Below are positions 5,234 to 55,666 of a stretch of DNA of 64,000 bases, one piece after another. Positions within the stretch are counted from its first letter, which is position 1, and each line of letters begins with the position of its first letter. The notes beneath the pieces were generated by a model. The model saw only the letters and a list, made by a program, of their open reading frames with translations, searched no databases and had not been told where the DNA came from. The position numbers were made by a program, and so were the translations under genes. Source of the DNA: an uncultured bacterium (GTDB taxonomy: Bacteria; Margulisbacteria; WOR-1; CAZGTC01); NCBI GenBank assembly GCA_964528395.1, contig CAZGTC010000001.1:30046-94045 (forward strand), read 5' to 3'.

Positions 5234-6823
5234 ATGAATATGTTTTGCTTTCAATGCGAACAAGCCGCCAAAGGAAAAGGGTGCGAGATCCAAGGGGTAT
5301 GCGGAAAAAAGCCTGAAGTCGCGGCTCTGCAGGATTTGCTTGTTTATAAATTGCTACGAATTGCTGTCCTTAGCGACAAGTCGCGACTTGTTGCTAGGGA
5401 TAATTTTATAATTGAAGCTCTATTTTCAACTGTAACTAATGTTGATTTTGACCCAAAAAGGCTAAAAAAATATATTGATAAGGCGGATGAAATATTGGAA
5501 ACAAACGCAAGCCTTGAGATTGATGATTTAATCAAACAAGGCCAAGCCATCCAGTCAAAGCTCTTTTTTAATTTAACTGAAAATTCAGACGTTAATAGCT
5601 TAAAAAGCCTGCTTTTATTTGGTTTAAAGGGCATGGCTGCTTATTATGACCATGCTTCAATTTTGGGGCAAAAAGACGAAGCTGTAATATCTTTCTTTTA
5701 TAAAGGGTTAAACGCCTTGGCCGCGGAAAATATTTCAGTAGACGAGCTGATCAGCTTAAATATGGAGTTTGGCCAGGTTAATCTAAAATGCTTGGAGCTT
5801 TTGGACAAGGCAAATACCCAGCATTTTGGGCATCCTGTGCCGACCAAAGTTTCTCTCGGGGTAAAAAAAGGCCTAGCGATTTTGGTTTCTGGCCATGATT
5901 TATTAGATTTAGAAGAACTGTTAAAACAAACCGAAGGCAAAGGCATAAACATTTATACTCACGGAGAAATGCTGCCTGCTCATGGCTACCCAGCCTTAAA
6001 AAAATATAAGCATTTGGCGGGGAATTACGGTGGAGCCTGGCAAGACCAATATAAAGAATTTGCAGCTTTTCCGGGTGCGATTTTAATGACTACTAATTGT
6101 ATCCAAAGGCCCGCGGATTCTTATAAAAATAGGATTTTTACAACTGGGCTGGCGGCTTGGCCGGAAGTTGTACATATTTCAGATCGAGAACCTGGCAAGC
6201 CAAAAGATTTTTCTCCTTTGATTGAGGCAGCCAAAAAAGCTGACGGGTTTGAAAAAGATGAAGAGGGAAAAGAAATAATGGTGGGGTTTGGCCGCAATGC
6301 AGTGATGTCGATAGCAGATGAAATAATAGAGGCAATCGAAGCGGACCAAATCAAACATTTCTTTTTGATCGGCGGATGCGATGGGGCAAAGCCGGGCAGG
6401 AATTATTATACGGAATTTGCGCAATTAGCACCGAAAGATACAGTGGTTTTAACTTTGGCGTGTGGTAAGTACCGCTTTAATAAACTGGATTTTGGCGATA
6501 TTAACGGAATCCCGCGGCTTTTAGATATCGGCCAGTGCAATGATGCTTATTCTGCGATCCAGATTGCCTTGGCCTTAAGCAAAGCTTTTAACATGGGAGT
6601 AAATGAGCTTCCTTTGTCTTTAATTTTATCCTGGTACGAGCAAAAAGCAGTTTGTATTTTACTAACTCTGTTATCTTTGGGAATAAAAAATATAAAGCTT
6701 GGGCCCAGCCTGCCAGCTTTTATCTCTCCCAATGTCTTAAAAGTACTGGTTGAAAAGTTTAATATCGCGCCGGTGAAGACAGCACAGGAGGATTTGAAAG
6801 AGATATTAGAAAAAAAGGGATAA
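5234..6823 (+). CDS. hcp: hydroxylamine reductase / hybrid-cluster protein
   Basis: 529 aa; N-terminal Cys cluster FCFQCEQ...C...GVCGK and conserved GHD, GGCDGA, ACGKYRFN, GQCNDAYS blocks. Confidence 0.9.
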   Translation: MNMFCFQCEQAAKGKGCEIQGVCGKKPEVAALQDLLVYKLLRIAVLSDKSRLVARDNFIIEALFSTVTNVDFDPKRLKKYIDKADEILETNASLEIDDLIKQGQAIQSKLFFNLTENSDVNSLKSLLLFGLKGMAAYYDHASILGQKDEAVISFFYKGLNALAAENISVDELISLNMEFGQVNLKCLELLDKANTQHFGHPVPTKVSLGVKKGLAILVSGHDLLDLEELLKQTEGKGINIYTHGEMLPAHGYPALKKYKHLAGNYGGAWQDQYKEFAAFPGAILMTTNCIQRPADSYKNRIFTTGLAAWPEVVHISDREPGKPKDFSPLIEAAKKADGFEKDEEGKEIMVGFGRNAVMSIADEIIEAIEADQIKHFFLIGGCDGAKPGRNYYTEFAQLAPKDTVVLTLACGKYRFNKLDFGDINGIPRLLDIGQCNDAYSAIQIALALSKAFNMGVNELPLSLILSWYEQKAVCILLTLLSLGIKNIKLGPSLPAFISPNVLKVLVEKFNIAPVKTAQEDLKEILEKKG

Positions 6824-6865
6824 GGTGAGGGAGAAGAATGAGTTTTTTAGAAAGGAGGTGAAAAA

Positions 6866-7159
6866 ATGACAATTGACGAACTTAATATTTTTTTAGAGAA
6901 AAATTTAGAAGTTGAATGGCATCAAGATGATGACGGAACTATTTATTTGCGCCATTCGACATTTGACGATCCAACAGAAAAGCTTAAGATTGCACCTGGT
7001 GCGCTAGAAAAGATCTCGGTTTCACAACTAAAATCTTTGCTAGTGGGTGGCCGCAATATAGAGCATATTACCCGCATAACCGGGTATTTTTCAAAAGTTG
7101 AGGGCTGGAATAAGGGAAAACAAGGAGAATTAAGGGATCGGCAGAGGGTAGCGGTATAG
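6866..7159 (+). CDS. small protein resembling the glycyl-radical C-terminus of class III ribonucleotide reductase NrdD
   Basis: 97 aa; C-terminal TRITGYFSKVEGWNKGKQGELRDR resembles the NrdD motif TRVCGYLG...NAGKQEEVKRR; strong RBS GAAAGGAGGTG. Confidence 0.5.
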   Translation: MTIDELNIFLEKNLEVEWHQDDDGTIYLRHSTFDDPTEKLKIAPGALEKISVSQLKSLLVGGRNIEHITRITGYFSKVEGWNKGKQGELRDRQRVAV

Positions 7160-28952: not shown

Positions 28953-30059
28953 TTAATTTTCCTTTCTATTGCTTTTTTTTGGTTCTTCTTTTTTGCTTTT
29001 TTCCTTTTCATCATCATCATTTTTTTCTTTTTCTTCTTCTTCTGAAACATCGTTTATTTTTTTAGGCTTTTGCTCTTTGATGTGTTTTTTGACCTTGTCC
29101 AAAATTTCGCTGAATAGGGTTGGATTTTCTTCTAAATATTTTTGCGCGTTTTCCAGTCCCTGCCCGATCTTTTTTCCTTCGTAGGAGTACCAGGCCCCGA
29201 CTTTTTCAATGAAGTTCAAATTTGATGCAACCTCTACCAAGTCAACATATTTGGAAATGCCTTCCCCGTATTTAAGGAGGAATTCCGCGCTTTTAAAGGG
29301 CGGGGCAACCTTGTTTTTTACCACTTTTACATTTACCCGCGCCCCAATAATCAGGGTGCCTTCGCGGATTTTTTCAATCGGCCTAACTTCCAACCTGACA
29401 GAAGAATAAAATTTTAGCGCCCGGCCTCCAGGGGTGATTTCGGGGTTGCCGAACATGATCCCGACTTTTTCCCTTAATTGGTTGACGAATACTACGATGC
29501 TTTTGGATTTATTAACTACAGCAGTTAATTTCCTCAAGGCTTGTGACATGAGCCGGGCTTGCAAACCGATCCTGGCTTCGCCCATTTCGCCTTCAATTTC
29601 AGCCTTGGGAACCAGTGCTGCCACAGAGTCAATAACAATAATATCAATGGCTCCAGAGCGCACCAGGGTCTCGGTAATTTCCAATGCTTGTTCCCCGTAA
29701 TCTGGCTGGGAAATCAAGAGGTCATCAATATTTACTCCCAATTTGCTGGCATAAACCGGGTCCATTGAATGTTCCGCATCAATAAAAGCAGCTGTGCCCC
29801 CGCTTCTTTGCACTTCAGCAATAGCGAGCAGCGTGACCGTTGTTTTTCCTCCAGCCTCGGGTCCAAAAATCTCAACGATTCTTCCGCGCGGCAGCCCGCC
29901 TACTCCCAATGCTAAATCCAGGGACAAGCAGCCAGTTGAAACAGCTTCGACCTTCATTTTTGAAGCTTCGCCCATTTTCATGATCGAACCTTTACCCCAA
30001 TTTTTTTCAATTTGCGATATAGCCAAGCCCAAAGCTTTATTTTTTTGATCAGTTACCAT
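28953..30059 (-). CDS. recA: recombinase RecA with extended charged C-terminal tail
   Basis: 368 aa; Walker [10 protein letters not shown] and canonical RecA core; long Lys/Glu-rich tail. Confidence 0.95.
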
Positions 30060-36644: not shown

Positions 36645-36716
36645 TGGGCCTTGTAGGATTCGAACCTACAACCAATCGGTTATGAGCCGAGTGCTCTACC
36701 CTTGAGCTAAAGGCCC
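36645..36716 (-). tRNA. tRNA with CAT anticodon, elongator type; probably tRNA-Ile2 (lysidine)
   Basis: GGGCCTTTAGCTCAAGGGTAGAGCACTCGGCTCATAACCGATTGGTTGTAGGTTCGAATCCTACAAGGCCCA folds as a cloverleaf; G1:C72 paired so not initiator; tilS is 2 kb away. Confidence 0.8.
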
Positions 36717-38390: not shown

Positions 38391-38464
38391 GGCTGGGTAG
38401 CTCAGCTGGTTAGAGCAAACGGCTCATACCCGTTGTGTCGGCAGTTCGAATCTGCCCCCAGCCA
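38391..38464 (+). tRNA. tRNA-Met (CAT), elongator type
   Basis: GGCTGGGTAGCTCAGCTGGTTAGAGCAAACGGCTCATACCCGTTGTGTCGGCAGTTCGAATCTGCCCCCAGCCA; canonical arms; G1:C72 paired. Confidence 0.8.
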
Positions 38465-48143: not shown

Positions 48144-51100
48144 TTAATTTTCTCCTCTAGCCTCGAGTAATCGGTTTATCTCGGCGGATATGTTTAATAT
48201 TGTCTTGATTTCCGATTTTATTTGAGAAGGGATTTTTTCTTCTTTATCATAGGAATAAAGAATGTTTTTAATGGTTAATTCTACATAAAGTTGAGTATCG
48301 ATAACATATGCTGTTAATTTAGGATTTGCTGCAATGTTTCTCACGGCTTCTATTTGAGAATATAAAGCAGAAAGTAAATTTAATATTTTTTCCAGAGTTA
48401 AATTTTGCGGATCTGCCAGATAGGTTAGAGCTTTATTAAGAGATATTTCTGGGTTATCGTTGATTAAATCATTGGTTGTAGTTGGCGGCAGGGGTGGTGG
48501 AGCAAGGGGTTGTGGAGCTGGTTTTGATGCTTCTTCTGCTTGTTTTCTTTCTAATTCTTCTAGTTTTTGTTCTACGCTTGGTAAATTTTTTGATACACCC
48601 CTGTGTGTTTTAAGTATTTTCTGTAGATATTCTAGGGCAATTCGGCAGTTTTTTACCTCATTTGTTTGCGGCAATGTTTCAAGCTGCGTTAAAAAATCTA
48701 TTCGTTTCATCCAAAACGCTGCAGCGGAGAATATAAGGTCGTGCGGAAGATTGGATTCTGCTTCTATGGCTCTCAAGTGTCCGCTCAAAGTTGCCATAGG
48801 GCTGTTTATTAAATCATTTGCTTGTAGCGCTTGAATTCTAATTTTAATTTCTTCAATAGAAGTCGAAGGCAACCTCAAAGATGCTGCTGGAGGTGCTGGA
48901 GTAGGTGCTGGAGGTGGGGTTTTTTCTTGACCCTTGACCCTTGCTACTTGTTTCTCTTGTTTTGCGGATGGAGTTTGTGGTGAGGTGAAGGGTTTTTCTT
49001 TAGGAGGCAGAAAATTGGCGGGTTCTACAAGAGCTGGCGCTGGTGCAGGGGGGGGAGGTGTGTGTAACAAGGAATCAGCAGCAGCATTGATACCTTCTTG
49101 AGAATAGGCTCGACCTGTTTCTCTTGATGAACCAATGAGTTCTTGTAATTTGGCATTAATTCTAGATAAATTATCCATAACGTTTTGTTTATTTTCTTGT
49201 AAATCTGCTTGCTCGGGAGCAATAGAGATAGCTGCTGTTTTGCGATAAATTTTTTCATAAATAGCAGCATATTGATTAGCTGCGTTAATATCGTTGGGAT
49301 TATTGGAATCAAGTGGAGAAATTATAGGCAATAGAAGATTAACTAGCTCTTCTAGTATTTTTATTGAAAGAATATCTTTTCTTTTTTCTCTTGATTCAAA
49401 GAAAGATATGAAGGCTTGGCATATATGGAAAGGAGTTTGGGCTTTTGTTAAATTAATAGTTAATAAAGAAATATCTCTTTTATCTGTTTTTGTTCTTATT
49501 TTATCATCAAAAATGCCAATAACTTCTTGAAGATTTTTAGGGAAATTTGCTCCCAAATGTTCAGTTTTCTTTTCTAATAAAGTATAAATATTTATAAAAA
49601 TTTCTAATGTTTCAAAAGGAGCCGAAGATATTTTTTGGATGGCGATTTTGTATAAGGAAATCGCAAGATTTACTTTTAAATTTTCCGCCAAATCCTCACG
49701 AATAATCCTCTCAATTTCTTCTGGTGCAGCCGCGGCCATGGCCTGCAAATGATGTTTTTCTAAAGTCGCGAGTTTGATTTCACTTCTTTGTCTTAATCCT
49801 TCATATTGATTTTTTATTGATTCTGGAGCGCGGTCAAATTTCCCCCATACAAAAACTGCGGCTTCGGTTATTTGTCCTGCGGCGCGGGCTTGTTCATGGG
49901 GGAAGGCGCGGTCAAAAGCCTTCGAATACTCCCCGACAATAGCCTCGATCCAGGCGGGGTTATAGGATAAGAGCTGGTAAGAAATATTTTGGAGGTCTTC
50001 AAGAGTTTTTGCTAAATCAATGGAATGAGGATTGCTAAATATGTTTTGATTGAATTGGGCAGAAAAATTTTGTAATTGCTCTCTTTCTTTTTTTCTTGTT
50101 TCTTCAACAAAAGCGTCTAATTCCTCTATATTTTGTGGAATCTGTAGATTGCTTTCCTCTTGATTTGATTGTTTTAAATCTAATAGTCTTTTAACCCCAG
50201 TATTACTTTGATTGGCATGTTGCCGGGCATATTGCAAGGTGCCTTTTTTTGGGCTGATAAGTCCGGGAAAAGCTGCTTCCAGCGCTTGTACGTCTTCTCT
50301 TGAAGGGACATATTGAGAGGCACATAAAAAATCAAGCAAGGCAGGAGTTCCCAAGCGAAAGATCCCTTCGCAATCGAGGAACATCAATTGTAAAGCGCGG
50401 GTTTTTAATGCTATCGCAGTTTCTCCTTGTAAATCTAATGCTGCCAATATGAGGCCGAACAATTCGATGTTTTTGCATTTAATAATAGCTAAAGTGGCAT
50501 TATAAATTAAGTCTTTTTGCGCAGGACTTAGGTTTTCTTCTTGCGCCAGGATAGAAACCGCACGAGGGAATTCAATGGCAACATCGGTTACGTCAATGCC
50601 GTTTTTTAGGGGCTGTAAATTATTTTTTATTTCTTTTTCATTTTTTCCATCTGCCTCAAGCCCTTCAATGATCTGCAACTGGCGCAGGGCTATATATAGA
50701 GGTTTTTTAGCTAAGTCTTGATAAACTATTTTTACTATGGCATTTAAAGAGTTTAATTTTTGGTCGTTAAATAGGTTGAATAGTAAGTGGTGTAATCCTG
50801 CGTAAGACTGGTCAACATCCTCTTCTATTTTAGTTTCTTTGGCATTAGCTAAGCGCAATAAAAAAAATAGTTCAAAAAGCTCGTTCATCTGCTGAAAACA
50901 TGTATTTTGGTCTAAAGGATTTAGCGAGTTTTGGATTTTAAAAGCCTCTCTTAAGGCAATATGTTTTAGCGTGATTACCTGGTTGTCTGCAGTATCCATG
51001 ATTATTTCTTTATGTTCAAAAATTTGCGTAACATATAAGCAGTTCATGGCAGTTTTGTAGAAGAGCAATGAAATATCCCTTAATTCTTTTTTGGATGGGA

Positions 51101-51518
51101 CATCATATAAAGTTGAGATGCCATGGAAAATTTCCATAAAAGCCCGACAGCTGACATAAAAAACGGCATTACTAATATCTTTTGGGATTGTTTCTCCAGA
51201 GGCTGTTTCATAAGCCTGAATAAAAGCTTCAATTTTTCTTTCTGAATTCTCTTCATTCAGAGCTGCATTATTTATGTCTTCGATAATTGTCAAAAAGTCT
51301 TTGGCTTCTTGAATAGATGCAATGCGAGTAAACCGATCTTTCTGCTCCAGAACTTTTTGATGAACAGTGTCTGGGGATATTCCAAAGATATTCTTTGGAG
51401 GAAGAAGCCCCCTCAAAAATTCTTTTTGCTTGCTGGTTGCTTGTATAGGAAGCCTAAGAGCAGGAGAATTGGCTCCAGGGTTTGGTTGAAATCTTCTTAT
51501 TTCTATTCCATTGGTCAT
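48144..51518 (-). CDS. giant hypothetical protein (operon member)
   Basis: 1124 aa; mostly helical; Pro-rich linkers (HTPPPPAPAPA, KTPPPAPTPAPP, APPPLPP); no recognisable domain. Confidence 0.5.
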   Translation of the reverse strand: MTNGIEIRRFQPNPGANSPALRLPIQATSKQKEFLRGLLPPKNIFGISPDTVHQKVLEQKDRFTRIASIQEAKDFLTIIEDINNAALNEENSERKIEAFIQAYETASGETIPKDISNAVFYVSCRAFMEIFHGISTLYDVPSKKELRDISLLFYKTAMNCLYVTQIFEHKEIIMDTADNQVITLKHIALREAFKIQNSLNPLDQNTCFQQMNELFELFFLLRLANAKETKIEEDVDQSYAGLHHLLFNLFNDQKLNSLNAIVKIVYQDLAKKPLYIALRQLQIIEGLEADGKNEKEIKNNLQPLKNGIDVTDVAIEFPRAVSILAQEENLSPAQKDLIYNATLAIIKCKNIELFGLILAALDLQGETAIALKTRALQLMFLDCEGIFRLGTPALLDFLCASQYVPSREDVQALEAAFPGLISPKKGTLQYARQHANQSNTGVKRLLDLKQSNQEESNLQIPQNIEELDAFVEETRKKEREQLQNFSAQFNQNIFSNPHSIDLAKTLEDLQNISYQLLSYNPAWIEAIVGEYSKAFDRAFPHEQARAAGQITEAAVFVWGKFDRAPESIKNQYEGLRQRSEIKLATLEKHHLQAMAAAAPEEIERIIREDLAENLKVNLAISLYKIAIQKISSAPFETLEIFINIYTLLEKKTEHLGANFPKNLQEVIGIFDDKIRTKTDKRDISLLTINLTKAQTPFHICQAFISFFESREKRKDILSIKILEELVNLLLPIISPLDSNNPNDINAANQYAAIYEKIYRKTAAISIAPEQADLQENKQNVMDNLSRINAKLQELIGSSRETGRAYSQEGINAAADSLLHTPPPPAPAPALVEPANFLPPKEKPFTSPQTPSAKQEKQVARVKGQEKTPPPAPTPAPPAASLRLPSTSIEEIKIRIQALQANDLINSPMATLSGHLRAIEAESNLPHDLIFSAAAFWMKRIDFLTQLETLPQTNEVKNCRIALEYLQKILKTHRGVSKNLPSVEQKLEELERKQAEEASKPAPQPLAPPPLPPTTTNDLINDNPEISLNKALTYLADPQNLTLEKILNLLSALYSQIEAVRNIAANPKLTAYVIDTQLYVELTIKNILYSYDKEEKIPSQIKSEIKTILNISAEINRLLEARGEN

Positions 51519-51539
51519 AAAATTGACTCTCGCTTTTTA

Positions 51540-52796
51540 TTATTTCTTTTTGTTTCTTAACCAGCCAATAGCTTCTCTTGAGCTATATATAATTAGAGAT
51601 AGAATTAGAGATGCGGCTATTGTGATAAGAATGTTTTCACCCACGATATCTAAGTAATTGTCAGACCACAGATGTTCTGTTAGTTCTGGAGTCATACTTC
51701 CAGCATCAAAATAACTCAAAACTGATCCAGCAATTCCTCCACCAATTATTCCACCCCCTGCAAATTTCAATGCTGTCCGTATTTTGCTTGATTGTTTTTC
51801 TACACGGTCTTTTACTTTTTTTGTTGGGGGCTTTGCTGGTTTATTAGCTGGAGGAGGAGGGGTTTCTGGTGCTGAAGGAGGAGTTGGTACTGGTGTTGGA
51901 GCAGGAGATGTTGCTGATGCTGGAGAAGGAGTTACTGGTGGGGTTGGTGGCTGTTCTGAAACAGATGATGGTTTTTCTTGAGAGATAGTTTCTCTTCCGG
52001 TTCTTGGTTTTTCTCGATCAGAAATAAGTGTCTTTTTTTGTCCTTCAGTTGTTTGGCGCGATAAATCTGATAAATTTATAGGTTTGCGACCAGGAGCTGA
52101 TTCCGTCTCTGAATCTAACTCCTCAAAAATAAGATCAAGGTCATCTAACCCTTTTATTTCATTGCTAGAAGCAGGGGCAGGTGGGGTATTTATTACTCTT
52201 GGTTTTGGGGTAGACCTTCTTTTTTGTTTTTCAATTAGTATTAAATCTATCCCTCTATCGGTTGGTGCTTCTGGAGGAAGGGGTGGGAGGGAGACTGGGG
52301 GGGTGGGGTCGGCTTTATTAGGGTCTGGGGCGGCGGTTACTTCTGGCATTGAAACCCAAGGAGTTCCAACAGCATGTTGTCCGTTTGCAGTTTTGGAAGG
52401 ATCTAGTCTCTCAACTAATGCTTCTATTTCATTCCCTGTTTCTCCTTTTCCTCTTGGGACACCGGGTAATTTTGGACTAGTAACACCAGGAAGACTGGCT
52501 GGTTGTCCAATTTTTTCATCTTGAGTATCATTAGGTTTTTCAGCCATTTTAACTATTTGTATTTCATTTAAAGTTAAATCTTTTACTAATTTTCTTGTTG
52601 GGATTTCTTGCGAGCCGGTGGCAAGGGCGAAATTTTGATTAGAAATAGACAAGAAAGATTGCACAGCTGTTTTCCAACTGTCTAGCGCAATCCTAACTTG
52701 TGCTTCCCTTCCCTGAAAACACCGAAAGGTTTCGTGTGTTCTTCTCCAATTTGTTGCCGGGACATGATTTGCTATTCTTCCAAAAAAAGATGCCAT
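51540..52796 (-). CDS. proline-rich hypothetical protein with C-terminal hydrophobic anchor (first gene of operon)
   Basis: 418 aa; long low-complexity Pro/Thr/Ser region; C-terminus has two hydrophobic segments; RBS AGGAGG. Confidence 0.5.
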   Translation of the reverse strand: MASFFGRIANHVPATNWRRTHETFRCFQGREAQVRIALDSWKTAVQSFLSISNQNFALATGSQEIPTRKLVKDLTLNEIQIVKMAEKPNDTQDEKIGQPASLPGVTSPKLPGVPRGKGETGNEIEALVERLDPSKTANGQHAVGTPWVSMPEVTAAPDPNKADPTPPVSLPPLPPEAPTDRGIDLILIEKQKRRSTPKPRVINTPPAPASSNEIKGLDDLDLIFEELDSETESAPGRKPINLSDLSRQTTEGQKKTLISDREKPRTGRETISQEKPSSVSEQPPTPPVTPSPASATSPAPTPVPTPPSAPETPPPPANKPAKPPTKKVKDRVEKQSSKIRTALKFAGGGIIGGGIAGSVLSYFDAGSMTPELTEHLWSDNYLDIVGENILITIAASLILSLIIYSSREAIGWLRNKKK

Positions 52797-53006
52797 AAAA
52801 CAATTTCCTCCTATAAAAATTAATTAAAAATTTCCAATTTCAAATGACAAACAAGGAAGAATAATTAATATTAATACATTGTTTGACATTTTTAATTGCC
52901 TGCCTGCCGGCAAGGCAGGGTCATTTGTCATTATACTTGTATCGGCAAAACAATGGCAAGATTTCAGTTTGGGGAAAATATTTTATGAGGGTTGGGCGTT
53001 TTTATG

Positions 53007-53034
53007 TTGACTCTTATATTGTAAATGATATAAT
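53007..53034 (+). promoter_or_regulatory. sigma70-type promoter upstream of the AbiEi-like/Fic pair
   Basis: TTGACT (53007-53012), 16-nt spacer, TATAAT (53029-53034); gene start at 53085. Confidence 0.5.
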
Positions 53035-53084
53035 CTATCCATAATGTTTACGAATAAACTATCTAAAATATTTACGGATAAAAT

Positions 53085-53759
53085 ATGACAACAATTAATG
53101 AAAAAGCCCATATTTTTTGGCAAAAACATGCAGACGAAGGGAAAATAGTTTTAACTAAAGAAGATTTTCCAAATGAATACATCCGGCGATTTTTAATTAA
53201 AAAAAGCTTTTTGTACCGGTTGCGCAGGAATTTGTATATCCTTAAAAACCCTTTAGATAGCCTAGAAGACATCATATATAAGAATTACTGGCAAATTGCT
53301 GCAACTGTTTTAAAAAGATATTATCCTTGGTCGATTGAGAAAGAAAATGCCCTAAGTTTATGGGCCGGCAGCCAAAGCATCCCAAATTTGCTAAAAGTAA
53401 GGACTGCCAAAATAATTAAAAATAAGATTAAGCTCCCTTTTCATATTAATATATCTGTTCGCCCAGATAAAATGTTTAAAAAAGAAACATCGGGCGAAAT
53501 AAAAATTAATAATTCCCGCATATTCTTGGATCTCCCAGAAAAAATAATCTTTGAAGCAAAAAATTTAGAAGACCCTAATTTAAAAGCTTTAATCAAAGGG
53601 CATAAATTTAATAAATTGCTTTTGGAGGCCCTTTATTCAAAAAAACCCAAGCCTATTGTGGCTAAAAGGCTTATTAAATTAGCAAAAGAACTAGGACAAA
53701 ATGATCTGCAGGAAGCATTAGAAAAAATAGCAAAAGAATATACTTACTATCGATTTTAG
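53085..53759 (+). CDS. hypothetical protein, possibly AbiEi-like antitoxin-domain protein
   Basis: 224 aa; N-terminal GKIVLTKEDF...YRLRRNLYIL resembles AbiEi-type wHTH; directly upstream of Fic gene. Confidence 0.4.
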   Translation: MTTINEKAHIFWQKHADEGKIVLTKEDFPNEYIRRFLIKKSFLYRLRRNLYILKNPLDSLEDIIYKNYWQIAATVLKRYYPWSIEKENALSLWAGSQSIPNLLKVRTAKIIKNKIKLPFHINISVRPDKMFKKETSGEIKINNSRIFLDLPEKIIFEAKNLEDPNLKALIKGHKFNKLLLEALYSKKPKPIVAKRLIKLAKELGQNDLQEALEKIAKEYTYYRF

Positions 53760-53774
53760 AAGAAGGATAATCAT

Positions 53775-54554
53775 ATGGAAAAAATATGGATTAAGCGTCT
53801 TGAGGAAGATTTTTCTTTTTATGAAAAAGAAATAACCGGTAAATATTTTGACCTTATAAAAAATAAAAAAAGGATGCCCGTTGAAAGGATTTTAGCATCC
53901 GCAGAAAAAAATAAAAGCTATGACATATACCATTCTACAACAATTGAAGGGTATCAAATAACAGAAAAGGAAGTCGAAAATGTCTTATTGGGTAAAATAC
54001 CCCTCAAAGGCAAAGAAAGTGATAGCTTAAGGAATAAGCTGGCGATTTTGGGGCATTCTTTAGCTTTTGATTTTGTTATAAAAATGGTAAAAAAGCACTT
54101 TGATAAAATTAGAATAAGCGAAGAATTAATTTTGGATATTTATTTTCAGCTTTTTAAGCCATCCGCAGATGCTGAAATACTGGATAAATTTTCTTTAACC
54201 GGATATCGTAAAGTCCCGGTTTATATACGCGGAAGCCGTTTTGTCCCCCCAGCCTATGAAAAACTGGCGGATTTAATGAAGTCTTTTATACAACAAAGCA
54301 ATCTTATTAAGCAGCCTATTATAAAAGCCATTCTTTGCCATTACTTTTTGGTTACAATCCATCCTTTTATTGATGGCAATGGCAGATCTGCGAGGCTTTT
54401 GATGAATTGTATTTTAGCTGGAAATGGATATAAATGGATAACTATCAGTGCAAATGAGAGGGAAAAATATTTTGAAAGCTTAAAAATTGGCCAATTAGAA
54501 AACAATATATTGCCTTTTGCAGATTTTATTCTTTCTTTTTATGCCCCGCGCTAA
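53775..54554 (+). CDS. Fic-family protein (class II, with N-terminal inhibitory motif)
   Basis: 259 aa; Fic motif HPFIDGNGRSAR; upstream STTIEG matches the (S/T)xxxE(G/N) inhibitory helix. Confidence 0.8.
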   Translation: MEKIWIKRLEEDFSFYEKEITGKYFDLIKNKKRMPVERILASAEKNKSYDIYHSTTIEGYQITEKEVENVLLGKIPLKGKESDSLRNKLAILGHSLAFDFVIKMVKKHFDKIRISEELILDIYFQLFKPSADAEILDKFSLTGYRKVPVYIRGSRFVPPAYEKLADLMKSFIQQSNLIKQPIIKAILCHYFLVTIHPFIDGNGRSARLLMNCILAGNGYKWITISANEREKYFESLKIGQLENNILPFADFILSFYAPR

Positions 54555-54637
54555 ACTCTATCTAAATCCTTAATATTAGATTAAATTGGGGTGGGGTTGT
54601 GCTAAAATGCTTGAAATGATTTTTTAGGAGGCGAAAT

Positions 54638-55666
54638 ATGCTAGCAGTTTGGATCAAATTTATCGTGTGCACCCTCATTATTCTATGGTCAGGAGTGAAG
54701 CTGGCAAAGTACGGGGATGTGATCGCAGAAAAAACCGGGATTTCCAAGCTTTTTATTGGGACTATTGTGCTGGCTATGATCACTTCCCTGCCTGAACTTT
54801 CTTCCGGCATTTCTGCGGTTACTAGCCTTAAGATCCCGGATCTGGCTGTGGCGAATGTGGTGGGGTCTTGTTTGATCAATTTACTGGCTATCGCGTTTTT
54901 GGACTTTGTCTATAATAAAAAAGGCAAGGGCCCGATTTTGGGAGAAGCTGGTTTTGGCCATGTTTTGGCTGCGGGCTTAAGCATTTTACTTTTATCCTTG
55001 TGCTTGGCCGGCATCTTGAGCAGCCTTCTTTTAGTTCCCATTTCCCTATGGGTGGTCAGCTTTTATTCAGTGGCGATCTTTTTAGTTTATATTTTGTGCG
55101 AGCGCTTGATCTGCCGCTTTGAAGGCCGCGAATGCGACCGGTTCCTGGAAAAAAAGATCCAAAAAACCGAAAAACAAGAATTCGAAAAAAATACCGCAGC
55201 TTCAGCCTACACAAAATTTTTGCTACTCGCAATTTTGGTGGCTGCGGCCAGCTCATATTTGCCTGCAATTGCCCGTGAAATGGCGATTGCCTATAATTTA
55301 TCCTATACTTTTTCCGGCAGTGTTTTTATGTCTCTGGCTTGCAGCTTGCCGGAAATTGCCGTGGCTTTTTCCGCGATGATGATCGGCAGTATTGATATGG
55401 CGATTGCCAGCCTGATCGGCAGTAATATTTTTAATATCGCGGCCATTTTCTTTTTTGACTTTTTTTATGGCGAAGCCCCGATCTTTTCCCAGCTTTCCCT
55501 AAGCAATGCTTTTATCTGCGCCATGGCGATTTTTATGACTGCAATTGCCATTATGGGCTTGATTTATCGCTCGCATAAAGGCGTAGAAAGAAAGATCCGC
55601 TGGGACGCTATCGGATTAGTGGTGGCGTATCTTTTTGCCATGCTCATACTCTATAAAATCAATTAA
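54638..55666 (+). CDS. Ca2+/cation antiporter (CaCA family) membrane protein
   Basis: 342 aa; two alpha-repeat signatures (ITSLPELSSG and CSLPEIAVAF); RBS TAGGAGG. Confidence 0.75.
   Translation: MLAVWIKFIVCTLIILWSGVKLAKYGDVIAEKTGISKLFIGTIVLAMITSLPELSSGISAVTSLKIPDLAVANVVGSCLINLLAIAFLDFVYNKKGKGPILGEAGFGHVLAAGLSILLLSLCLAGILSSLLLVPISLWVVSFYSVAIFLVYILCERLICRFEGRECDRFLEKKIQKTEKQEFEKNTAASAYTKFLLLAILVAAASSYLPAIAREMAIAYNLSYTFSGSVFMSLACSLPEIAVAFSAMMIGSIDMAIASLIGSNIFNIAAIFFFDFFYGEAPIFSQLSLSNAFICAMAIFMTAIAIMGLIYRSHKGVERKIRWDAIGLVVAYLFAMLILYKIN

Follow-up and report, generated by a model that had tools for sequence, protein, structure and literature searches.

In a stretch of 64,000 nucleotides (nt) from the genome of an uncultured WOR-1 bacterium (Margulisbacteria; positions 30,046 to 94,045 of contig CAZGTC010000001.1), hereafter the window, two adjacent genes of the plus strand encode a protein with the predicted fold of the antitoxin AbiEi, ORF1 (open reading frame 1; 53085-53759, 224 amino acids (aa)), and a class II Fic (Fido) enzyme, ORF2 (53775-54554, 259 aa). 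With a probability of about 0.55, the two genes would form a self-contained and horizontally acquired module in which ORF1 represses the operon and controls the Fic enzyme, in the manner of a toxin-antitoxin (TA) or an abortive-infection system. The strongest functional evidence is provided by tandem repeats in the leader of the operon and by homologs in which the two proteins are fused, neither of which the preliminary description of this locus had noticed. While both folds are known, the combination of an AbiEi fold with a class II Fic enzyme apparently has not been described.

AbiE systems associate a COG5340 antitoxin with a DUF1814 nucleotidyltransferase (NTase) toxin and are classified as type IV TA systems, type VII having been proposed recently. 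AbiEi-type antitoxins are defined by these DUF1814 NTase partners, and class II Fic enzymes are regarded as self-contained and self-inhibited; both Fic and AbiE have been studied as TA or anti-phage modules, but separately. Full-text searches of the literature retrieved no AbiEi-like/Fic pair or fusion, an absence that is not proof of novelty, and the publications naming both AbiE and Fic deal with separate systems or with alternative cargo genes (in mycoplasma and in the integrative and conjugative elements of Helicobacter pylori).

An AbiEi-fold protein linked or fused to a class II Fic enzyme

In the 12 loci where the two proteins are encoded by separate genes, hereafter the split loci, the Fic gene invariably comes directly after the ORF1 homolog, and the downstream gene belongs to PF02661, never to DUF1814/AbiEii. 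The Fic start codon lies 15 nt after the ORF1 stop in the window; for the 11 other split loci this distance is -4 to +14 nt, except in L015, which has a gap of 88 nt with an uncertain start. Seen from the Fic side, every ortholog context opened, in Saganbacteria, Margulisbacteria, WOR-1 and unclassified metagenome-assembled genomes, contains directly upstream a gene of 224-228 aa without Pfam domain, the product of which is 39-46% identical to ORF1. The association that the preliminary description of this locus had proposed from the window, where the 15-nt distance is as it stated, recurs in all 12 split loci and, as detailed below, in fused form; it is indeed non-canonical, since the partner is Fic instead of a DUF1814/AbiEii NTase.

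Short ORFs upstream of Fic at two further places were considered as C-terminal-only partners and discarded, the one in L010 being merely cut by the contig end and those in L011 being ORF1-like pieces in three frames. The latter locus (~1550-2253) comprises a three-frame ORF1 homolog beside a more distant Fic (44% identity, on a metagenome contig) and would correspond to a decaying gene or an assembly error. Likewise, a second upstream ORF of 224 aa in L008 (3562-4236) was not retained as an ORF1 paralog, as it is unrelated (19% identity).

An exhaustive search with the ORF1 profile among 1.84 billion representatives returned 79 relatives, many of which are 490-560 aa long with the ORF1-like part at residues 1-225. 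A Fic domain is carried by 30 of the 76 remote matches to the profile, and it is C-terminal in all ten relatives of 490-560 aa that were scanned. About 26 fused clusters keep the inhibitory as well as the catalytic motif of Fic, with the spacing of a simple end-to-end fusion. The structure predicted for a natural fusion (predicted template modelling score (pTM) of 0.89), in which disorder is confined to the linker 230-240, indicates that the two modules would have a defined packing. In the split loci, start and stop codons can overlap (-4 and -1), which suggests translational coupling of the two genes. From the fusions, the start-stop overlaps and the strict linkage taken together, we infer that ORF1 and Fic physically work together. 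In the window, the two genes share the same reading frame and are separated only by TAG and five codons (KKDNH), an interval that also holds the ribosome-binding site of ORF2 (AAGGA, 53763-53767). A single stop-codon change or readthrough at the end of ORF1 would recreate there the fused ORF1::Fic architecture.

Regarding ORF2, the match to the Pfam model Fic (PF02661) is clear (E 1e-17, 65 bits for a cut-off of 24). The motif of the inhibitory helix, STTIEG (residues 54-59, 53934-53951), fits (S/T)xxxE(G/N) and is located in the same polypeptide, N-terminally to the Fic core, and the catalytic motif HPFIDGNGRSAR (residues 196-207, 54360-54395) fits HxFx(D/E)GNGRxxR; both had been recognised at the outset and are intact, as required for the class II assignment then made. 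Among 20 Fic orthologs, there is no variation in the catalytic residues H, D, G, N, G, R and R, Phe being often replaced by Tyr so that the motif reads HP[FY]xDGNGRxxR, and S54, T55, T56, E58 and G59 are invariant as well, with I57 conserved in at least 90%. The nearest solved structure is human FICD (E 2e-22), which aligns over residues 18-253, an alignment that starts ahead of the inhibitory helix and includes the catalytic loop, the TVAIEGN of FICD corresponding to STTIEG. Among the defence models of PADLOC, ORF2 matches SoFic (4e-26) and the PDC-S04 candidates (6e-19). An identification as SoFic was nevertheless rejected: with 259 aa the protein is too short and lacks the C-terminal winged helix, it covers just positions 62-258 of the 361-position PADLOC SoFic model, and it scores 31 bits against the NCBIfam SoFic equivalog, far below the cut-off of 550. 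Judged by its motifs, ORF2 is thus apparently a catalytically competent and self-inhibited class II Fic enzyme.

ORF1, for its part, belongs to a family of about 24 clusters at 90% identity, all annotated as hypothetical, whose members are 36-46% identical to ORF1 apart from one relative at 75%. It has no match in NCBIfam, PADLOC or PHROGs, the only hit, Hha at E 0.058, being noise, and a sequence-profile search of the PDB with ORF1 gave nothing meaningful. As the family is without a model in Pfam, NCBIfam, PADLOC and PHROGs, such cassettes are annotated as a hypothetical protein plus a Fic family protein and stay invisible to TA and defence finders. The AlphaFold2 model built from the family alignment (predicted local distance difference test (pLDDT) of 92, pTM 0.84) has a winged helix over roughly residues 1-55, then an alpha/beta domain and finally a helical bundle. 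When this model was compared with the PDB using Foldseek, the top match was 6Y8Q, the AbiEi of Streptococcus agalactiae (E 1.3e-5), followed by 1ZEL, i.e. Rv2827c of Mycobacterium tuberculosis (E 1.4e-3), both with a probability of 1.0 and both spanning the winged helix-turn-helix (wHTH) and the C-terminal domain of ORF1; lower matches are proteins of NTase fold (5UVD, JHP933, LnuA and MenT1). This pattern is the one published for AbiEi itself, the structural matches of which are Rv2827c first and then adenylyltransferases and 5UVD, AbiEi and Rv2827c being structural homologs of low sequence similarity (PMC7319586). The model of ORF1 thus has the two-domain AbiEi fold of 6Y8Q and 1ZEL, an N-terminal wHTH and a C-terminal domain. 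The likeness to AbiEi, first noticed for the N-terminus of ORF1, is accordingly confirmed by the predicted structure at the level of the fold, where it extends to the whole protein; it does not hold for profile hidden Markov models (HMMs), as considered further below. In addition, ORF1 is basic, with an isoelectric point (pI) of 9.8.

Within the C-terminal domain, the loop G95-P100 (53367-53384), between the helix 86-93 and the strand 102-107, reads GSQSIP in the window for a family consensus of GDESIP. In the ORF1 family, G95 and P100 are invariant, E97, S98 and I99 are conserved in at least 90%, and the fused homologs keep the loop as GDxSxP. In the alignment, it falls in the block that holds G(W/L)ISQIP in antitoxins whose genes precede those of AbiEii, and by its position in the model it is a candidate equivalent of the loop with which AbiEi enters the active site of the toxin. 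The sole stretch of ORF1 resembling (S/T)xxxE(G/N) is SIEKEN (residues 83-88), for which the family consensus is SIEKES, so that E(G/N) is not conserved. The split family also has a conserved C-terminal tail, (E/K)YTxYR(x), at residues 219-224 of ORF1 (53739-53756), which is of low confidence in the model; Y222 and R223 are invariant, Y219 and T220 nearly so, and the tail is mostly lost in the fusions. For Fic, this tail may serve either as a docking peptide or as a site of modification.

Tandem operator-like repeats in the leader

ORF1 is preceded by a sigma-70-type promoter on the plus strand (53007-53034), as stated in the preliminary description, with the -35 box TTGACT (53007-53012), a 16-nt spacer and the -10 box TATAAT (53029-53034). 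The latter is of the extended type (TGaTATAAT, 53026-53034, with the TG at 53026-53027), and the promoter matches the consensus at 11 of 12 positions. In this AT-rich region, promoter-like matches are not unusual by themselves (13 vs. 9.2 +/- 3.1 in shuffles); rather than from the hexamer match alone, the credibility of the promoter comes from the recurrence of the same layout in orthologous loci. In 8 of 12 orthologous leaders, the geometry is indeed the same, namely a -35-like TTGxxx, 17-18 nt, a -10 box directly adjoining a conserved repeat and a fixed distance to the ATG.

Two operator-like repeats of 24 nt each follow on the plus strand. Repeat 1 (53030-53053, core TATCCATAATGTTTACG at 53036-53052) overlaps the -10 box and the likely transcription start, and repeat 2 (53054-53077, core TATCTAAAATATTTACG at 53060-53076) ends 7 nt before the ATG. 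They are direct repeats with a period of 24 nt and an identity of 79%, which none of 300 shuffles reaches. The core TATCYAWAATRTNTRCG has exactly two matches in the window, both of them here, for 0.61 expected by chance even with two mismatches. Once anchored on the ATG, the leaders of the 12 split loci display the same order, i.e. -35, 17-18 nt, -10, repeat 1, repeat 2, 7 nt and ATG, and the mean pairwise identity of the repeat blocks across these loci amounts to 0.50-0.53 vs. 0.25 in an upstream control block, the proteins being only about 40% identical. The number of copies can vary, with three 24-nt repeats in L016 (~2905-2985) and one in L017 (~500-535). The first copy in L016 is almost palindromic (GCATATAAAATATATGC).

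The leaders of fused genes contain repeats too, with two copies of TATATTGMATACAA at a period of 24 nt in L022, three copies of AACAAAGTA at a period of 23 nt in L023 and three copies of ATATTCGTG at a period of 24 nt in L024. Their sequences differ from those of the split family, but the period is alike (23-24 nt). Over 15 leaders and 18 periods tried, the best direct-repeat period is 23-24 nt in ten, and in five loci the repeat exceeds all or nearly all shuffles in a periodicity test. A constant spacing with a changing sequence is what one would expect if each monomer of a binding protein covered about 24 bp and the protein evolved together with its site. In the case of AbiEi, two 23-bp sites, each bound by one monomer, extend over -35, -10, +1 and downstream positions (PMC3985639). 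An RNA leader or riboswitch was considered as the cause of the leader conservation and rejected in favour of a DNA operator: the transcribed leader folds no better than shuffles (z 0.23) and has no Rfam match. Together with the lineage-specific variants present in fused genes, the 24-nt repeats offer a directly testable operator-repressor pair.

Proposed control of the Fic enzyme and rival explanations

In its mode of action the module would be closest to AbiE. As in AbiE, it is bicistronic with the regulator first, the latter having the two-domain AbiEi fold and being basic and, as proposed, of monomer type; repeated sites of about 23-24 bp, here candidates derived from the sequence, cover -10, +1 and positions beyond; the second gene encodes a nucleotide-transferring enzyme; and a helix-to-strand loop occupies the position of the AbiEi loop. 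Yet two defining features of AbiE are missing, the DUF1814 toxin and the match to an AbiEi profile, since the partner is a Fic-fold AMP-transferase rather than a DUF1814 NTase of pol-beta fold and ORF1 matches no AbiEi model of Pfam. Unlike in AbiE, besides, the sites are direct repeats at a 24-nt period instead of a 23-3-23 inverted pair, the enzyme has a built-in inhibitory helix, and the two proteins also occur fused. With SoFic of Shewanella oneidensis, a single-gene defence system, and CbFic2 of Coxiella, the module shares a class II Fic with an N-terminal inhibitory helix and a winged-helix/helix-turn-helix (HTH) DNA-binding module, but in these two enzymes the DNA-binding domain is small, C-terminal and in the same polypeptide, whereas here it is a separate upstream AbiEi-fold protein or an N-terminal fusion. 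With the class I pairs FicT/FicA and VbhT/VbhA, it has in common two genes and a small upstream partner controlling, presumably so for ORF1, a Fic AMP-transferase able to arrest growth. In class I, however, the (S/T)xxxE(G/N) helix comes in trans from the antitoxin. Here it is in cis, in the Fic protein itself, which excludes the module from the class I Fic TA pairs; ORF1 has two domains in 224 aa, is predicted to bind DNA and is devoid of a conserved inhibitory motif. Finally, the inhibitory helix, flap and catalytic loop of ORF2 all align with those of FICD/HYPE, the metazoan Fic of the endoplasmic reticulum, which in contrast has a transmembrane segment and tetratricopeptide repeat (TPR) domains, and acts on BiP without a DNA-binding partner.

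According to the reading favoured here, the winged helix of ORF1 would most likely bind the two head-to-tail 24-nt sites that extend over the -10 box, the transcription start and the leader, and this binding would repress its own ORF1-ORF2 operon. The C-terminal domain of ORF1 would most likely dock on, and control, the Fic enzyme encoded just downstream. AbiEi is reported to form a stable complex with AbiEii, in which a flexible conserved loop (D85/E86/I87) that links a helix to the first strand of the C-terminal domain enters the active site of the toxin, and the binding of AbiEi drives an inactivating self-phosphorylation of the toxin (preprint 10.64898/2026.01.19.700257). By analogy, the G(D/S)(E/Q)SIP loop of ORF1 may reach towards the Fic active site, and it is because this loop stands at the same position of the fold as that of AbiEi that a TA-like or abortive-infection-like module is the best guess. 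ORF1 would keep Fic harmless until a trigger occurs, be it phage infection, stress or loss of the cassette; once the control by ORF1 is lost or altered, Fic might modify an essential cellular protein and growth would stop.

Several observations weigh against this reading, the first set of which concerns the kinship of ORF1 with AbiEi. ORF1 and five relatives have no Pfam match at E <= 10, the AbiEi models (AbiEi_4 PF13338 and AbiEi_1 PF09407) included; the HMM search for AbiEi_4 or Fic_N in ORF1, which the preliminary description had suggested as a check, would, if taken literally, lead to rejecting the AbiEi assignment. Nor does any of the 76 remote relatives match an AbiEi family (E <= 0.01), so that they form no sequence bridge. 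An AbiEi reference profile was built from five plasmid proteins encoded directly upstream of AbiEii genes, including on Sphingomonas and Campylobacter plasmids, the Sphingomonas antitoxin matching both AbiEi_4 and AbiEi_1 of Pfam. Against this profile, the ORF1 family gives with hhalign an alignment that is colinear and full-length over 194 columns but weak (E 0.0036, probability 9%); in it, the RGLY wing, the S-A-L helix, the G-x-(I)SQIP loop and D-x-PE-(K/R)-x-L fall on their AbiEi counterparts. Pairwise comparisons with annotated AbiEi proteins are likewise colinear but weak, and the similarity at the sequence level is suggestive only. A Runella plasmid protein encoded upstream of an AbiEii gene had been tried as a reference; it has no Pfam domain, its hhalign comparison was uninformative, and it was replaced. 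To these points must be added that the loop GSQSIP of the window is without the acidic residues of the family consensus, and that the repeats of the ORF1 locus are head-to-tail whereas AbiEi sites are inverted. The other set bears on function and mobility. In a class II Fic with its own inhibitory glutamate, the need for an antitoxin is not obvious, and ORF1 could be an activator or a switch. Stable covalent fusions are difficult to reconcile with the classical scheme, in which the antitoxin is labile and the toxin stable. The split family has no match in plasmids, isolate phages or IMG/VR viral contigs, and a defence-island context is not consistent across loci.

The own inhibitory glutamate of Fic and the poor fit of stable fusions with a labile antitoxin are also what makes a DNA-tethered bifunctional switch the main rival, rather unlikely as we judge it. 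SoFic and CbFic2 have a DNA-binding and oligomerising module in cis; ORF1 would then be its equivalent in trans, and the placing of ORF1-Fic units side by side on the tandem sites would alter the oligomeric state of Fic and toggle it between AMPylation and deAMPylation of a physiological target, for the purpose of regulation and not of growth arrest. FICD, the closest solved relative of ORF2 (E 2e-22), is reported to act as both AMPylase and deAMPylase under the control of its oligomeric state (PMC6826200); for SoFic, binding to its own promoter and a need for dimerisation in order to AMPylate are reported (preprint 10.64898/2026.07.09.737422), and the activity of CbFic2 switches on DNA-induced dimerisation via its HTH domain (PMC10628234). 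Tandem sites would bring two units side by side. Moreover, the inhibitory glutamate does not vary among the orthologs, and fusions of a DNA-binding module to Fic are common. The DNA-binding partner, however, has an AbiEi antitoxin fold with a C-terminal domain and is not a simple wHTH, the only conserved DNA sites found are in the module's own promoter, and the low GC content, patchy distribution and variable neighbourhood have the look of a mobile selfish or defence cassette rather than of a housekeeping regulator. Another explanation, improbable in our opinion, is that ORF1 is only the repressor of the operon and does not contact Fic, the linkage reflecting co-regulation and the fusions being one-component regulator-enzymes. 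No protein contact would be needed to account for the linkage, given that ORF1 has a wHTH and a basic pI and that the operator-like repeats are conserved, and AbiEi was first reported as not interacting with its toxin (PMC3985639); it is now reported to bind AbiEii via the loop of its C-terminal domain (preprint 10.64898/2026.01.19.700257). Besides, about 170 of the 224 residues of ORF1 form a conserved non-wHTH domain with invariant residues in a surface loop, the fusion model reaches its pTM of 0.89 across both modules, and the start-stop overlaps (-4 and -1) suggest translational coupling, all of which argues for more than repression.

Still more improbable is a nucleotidyltransferase activity of the C-terminal domain of ORF1, or a role of ORF1 as a substrate of Fic, AMPylated on Ser98 of the loop or on the YTxYR tail: ORF1 has no hG[GS]...DxD motif and no acidic pair 9-13 residues after G95, AbiEi as the nearest fold shows no nucleotide binding in thermal-shift assays (preprint 10.64898/2026.01.19.700257), and the YTxYR tail is mostly not conserved in the fusions. 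Coming back to the TA-like or abortive-infection-like module, a bolder and quite tentative generalisation, doubtful as it stands and built on analogy, is that AbiEi-fold proteins are general controllers of nucleotide-transferring toxins through a loop inserted in the active site. Docked on Fic in trans or as a fusion, they might redirect the enzyme to auto-AMPylation or hold it off its target, and repress the operon from tandem 24-bp monomer sites, which would define a new type VII-like Fic family. Were this true, it would amount to a new TA or defence family of Fic, split and fused, with a sensor-effector logic. More broadly, the existence of a conserved AbiEi-fold partner of a class II Fic, in split and fused form, suggests that the scaffold of AbiEi may be portable and may have been recruited to control a nucleotide-transferring enzyme of different mechanism, and that some class II Fic enzymes may have a layer of control beyond their own inhibitory helix. 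The module offers a natural series of split and fused forms made of familiar parts, in a small family from uncultivated lineages whose function is inferred throughout.

Genomic surroundings of the module

The GC content of the module is 30-32%, that of the Na/Ca exchanger and trehalose genes next to it about 45%, and the genes neighbouring the pair differ from locus to locus. In L008, a Peptidase_M15 gene and a phage-type integrase lie downstream of the pair (5800-7127); upstream of it are an S-adenosylmethionine (SAM) synthetase gene and two Pfam-less ORFs, beyond which come ORF6N and NERD/UPF0102 genes. In L003 (1-4128), an AbiEii gene and a radical-SAM/SPASM/PqqD peptide-maturation cluster are present within 5 kb upstream of the pair. 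The gene content around these two loci hints at a mobile or defence-island context in some genomes. Fused ORF1-like::Fic genes are also found on two contigs classified as viral in IMG/VR (L023, 3932-5473, and L024, 1014-2507).

Upstream of ORF1 in the window, 288 nt away and divergent from it, four Pfam-less ORFs of 418, 1124, 637 and 1164 aa occupy 42739-52796 on the minus strand. What the preliminary description had called a giant-protein operon is therefore divergent as stated, with proteins that are large rather than giant. The two translations read, those of 1124 and 418 aa, contain proline-rich low-complexity stretches, and the C-terminal end of the 418-aa protein is hydrophobic and probably membrane-spanning. 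Very large Pfam-less proteins adjoin the pair elsewhere too, with 3100 aa and >1299 aa in L005 and 991 aa in L009. The AT-rich divergent region of the window contains a second promoter match at 11 of 12 positions, on the minus strand (TTGCCA-18-TATAAT, 52930-52959), and a GC-rich intergenic hairpin with a 7-bp stem (CCTGCCTGCCGGCAAGGCAGG, 52899-52919). This hairpin is just downstream of that promoter in the minus-strand sense and would thus belong to the 5' leader of the divergent 418-aa gene. Close to it, a 20-nt inverted repeat (52835-52854 and 52879-52898) is 85% complementary.

Downstream of the module, the next gene encodes the Na/Ca exchanger (start at 54638, about 45% GC). A terminator scan from the Fic stop to this gene (54555-54637) found no intrinsic terminator, so that transcription of the module might read through into housekeeping genes. 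Elsewhere in the window, two tRNA genes, at 36645-36716 on the minus strand and 38391-38464 on the plus strand, are the only matches above the Rfam gathering threshold.

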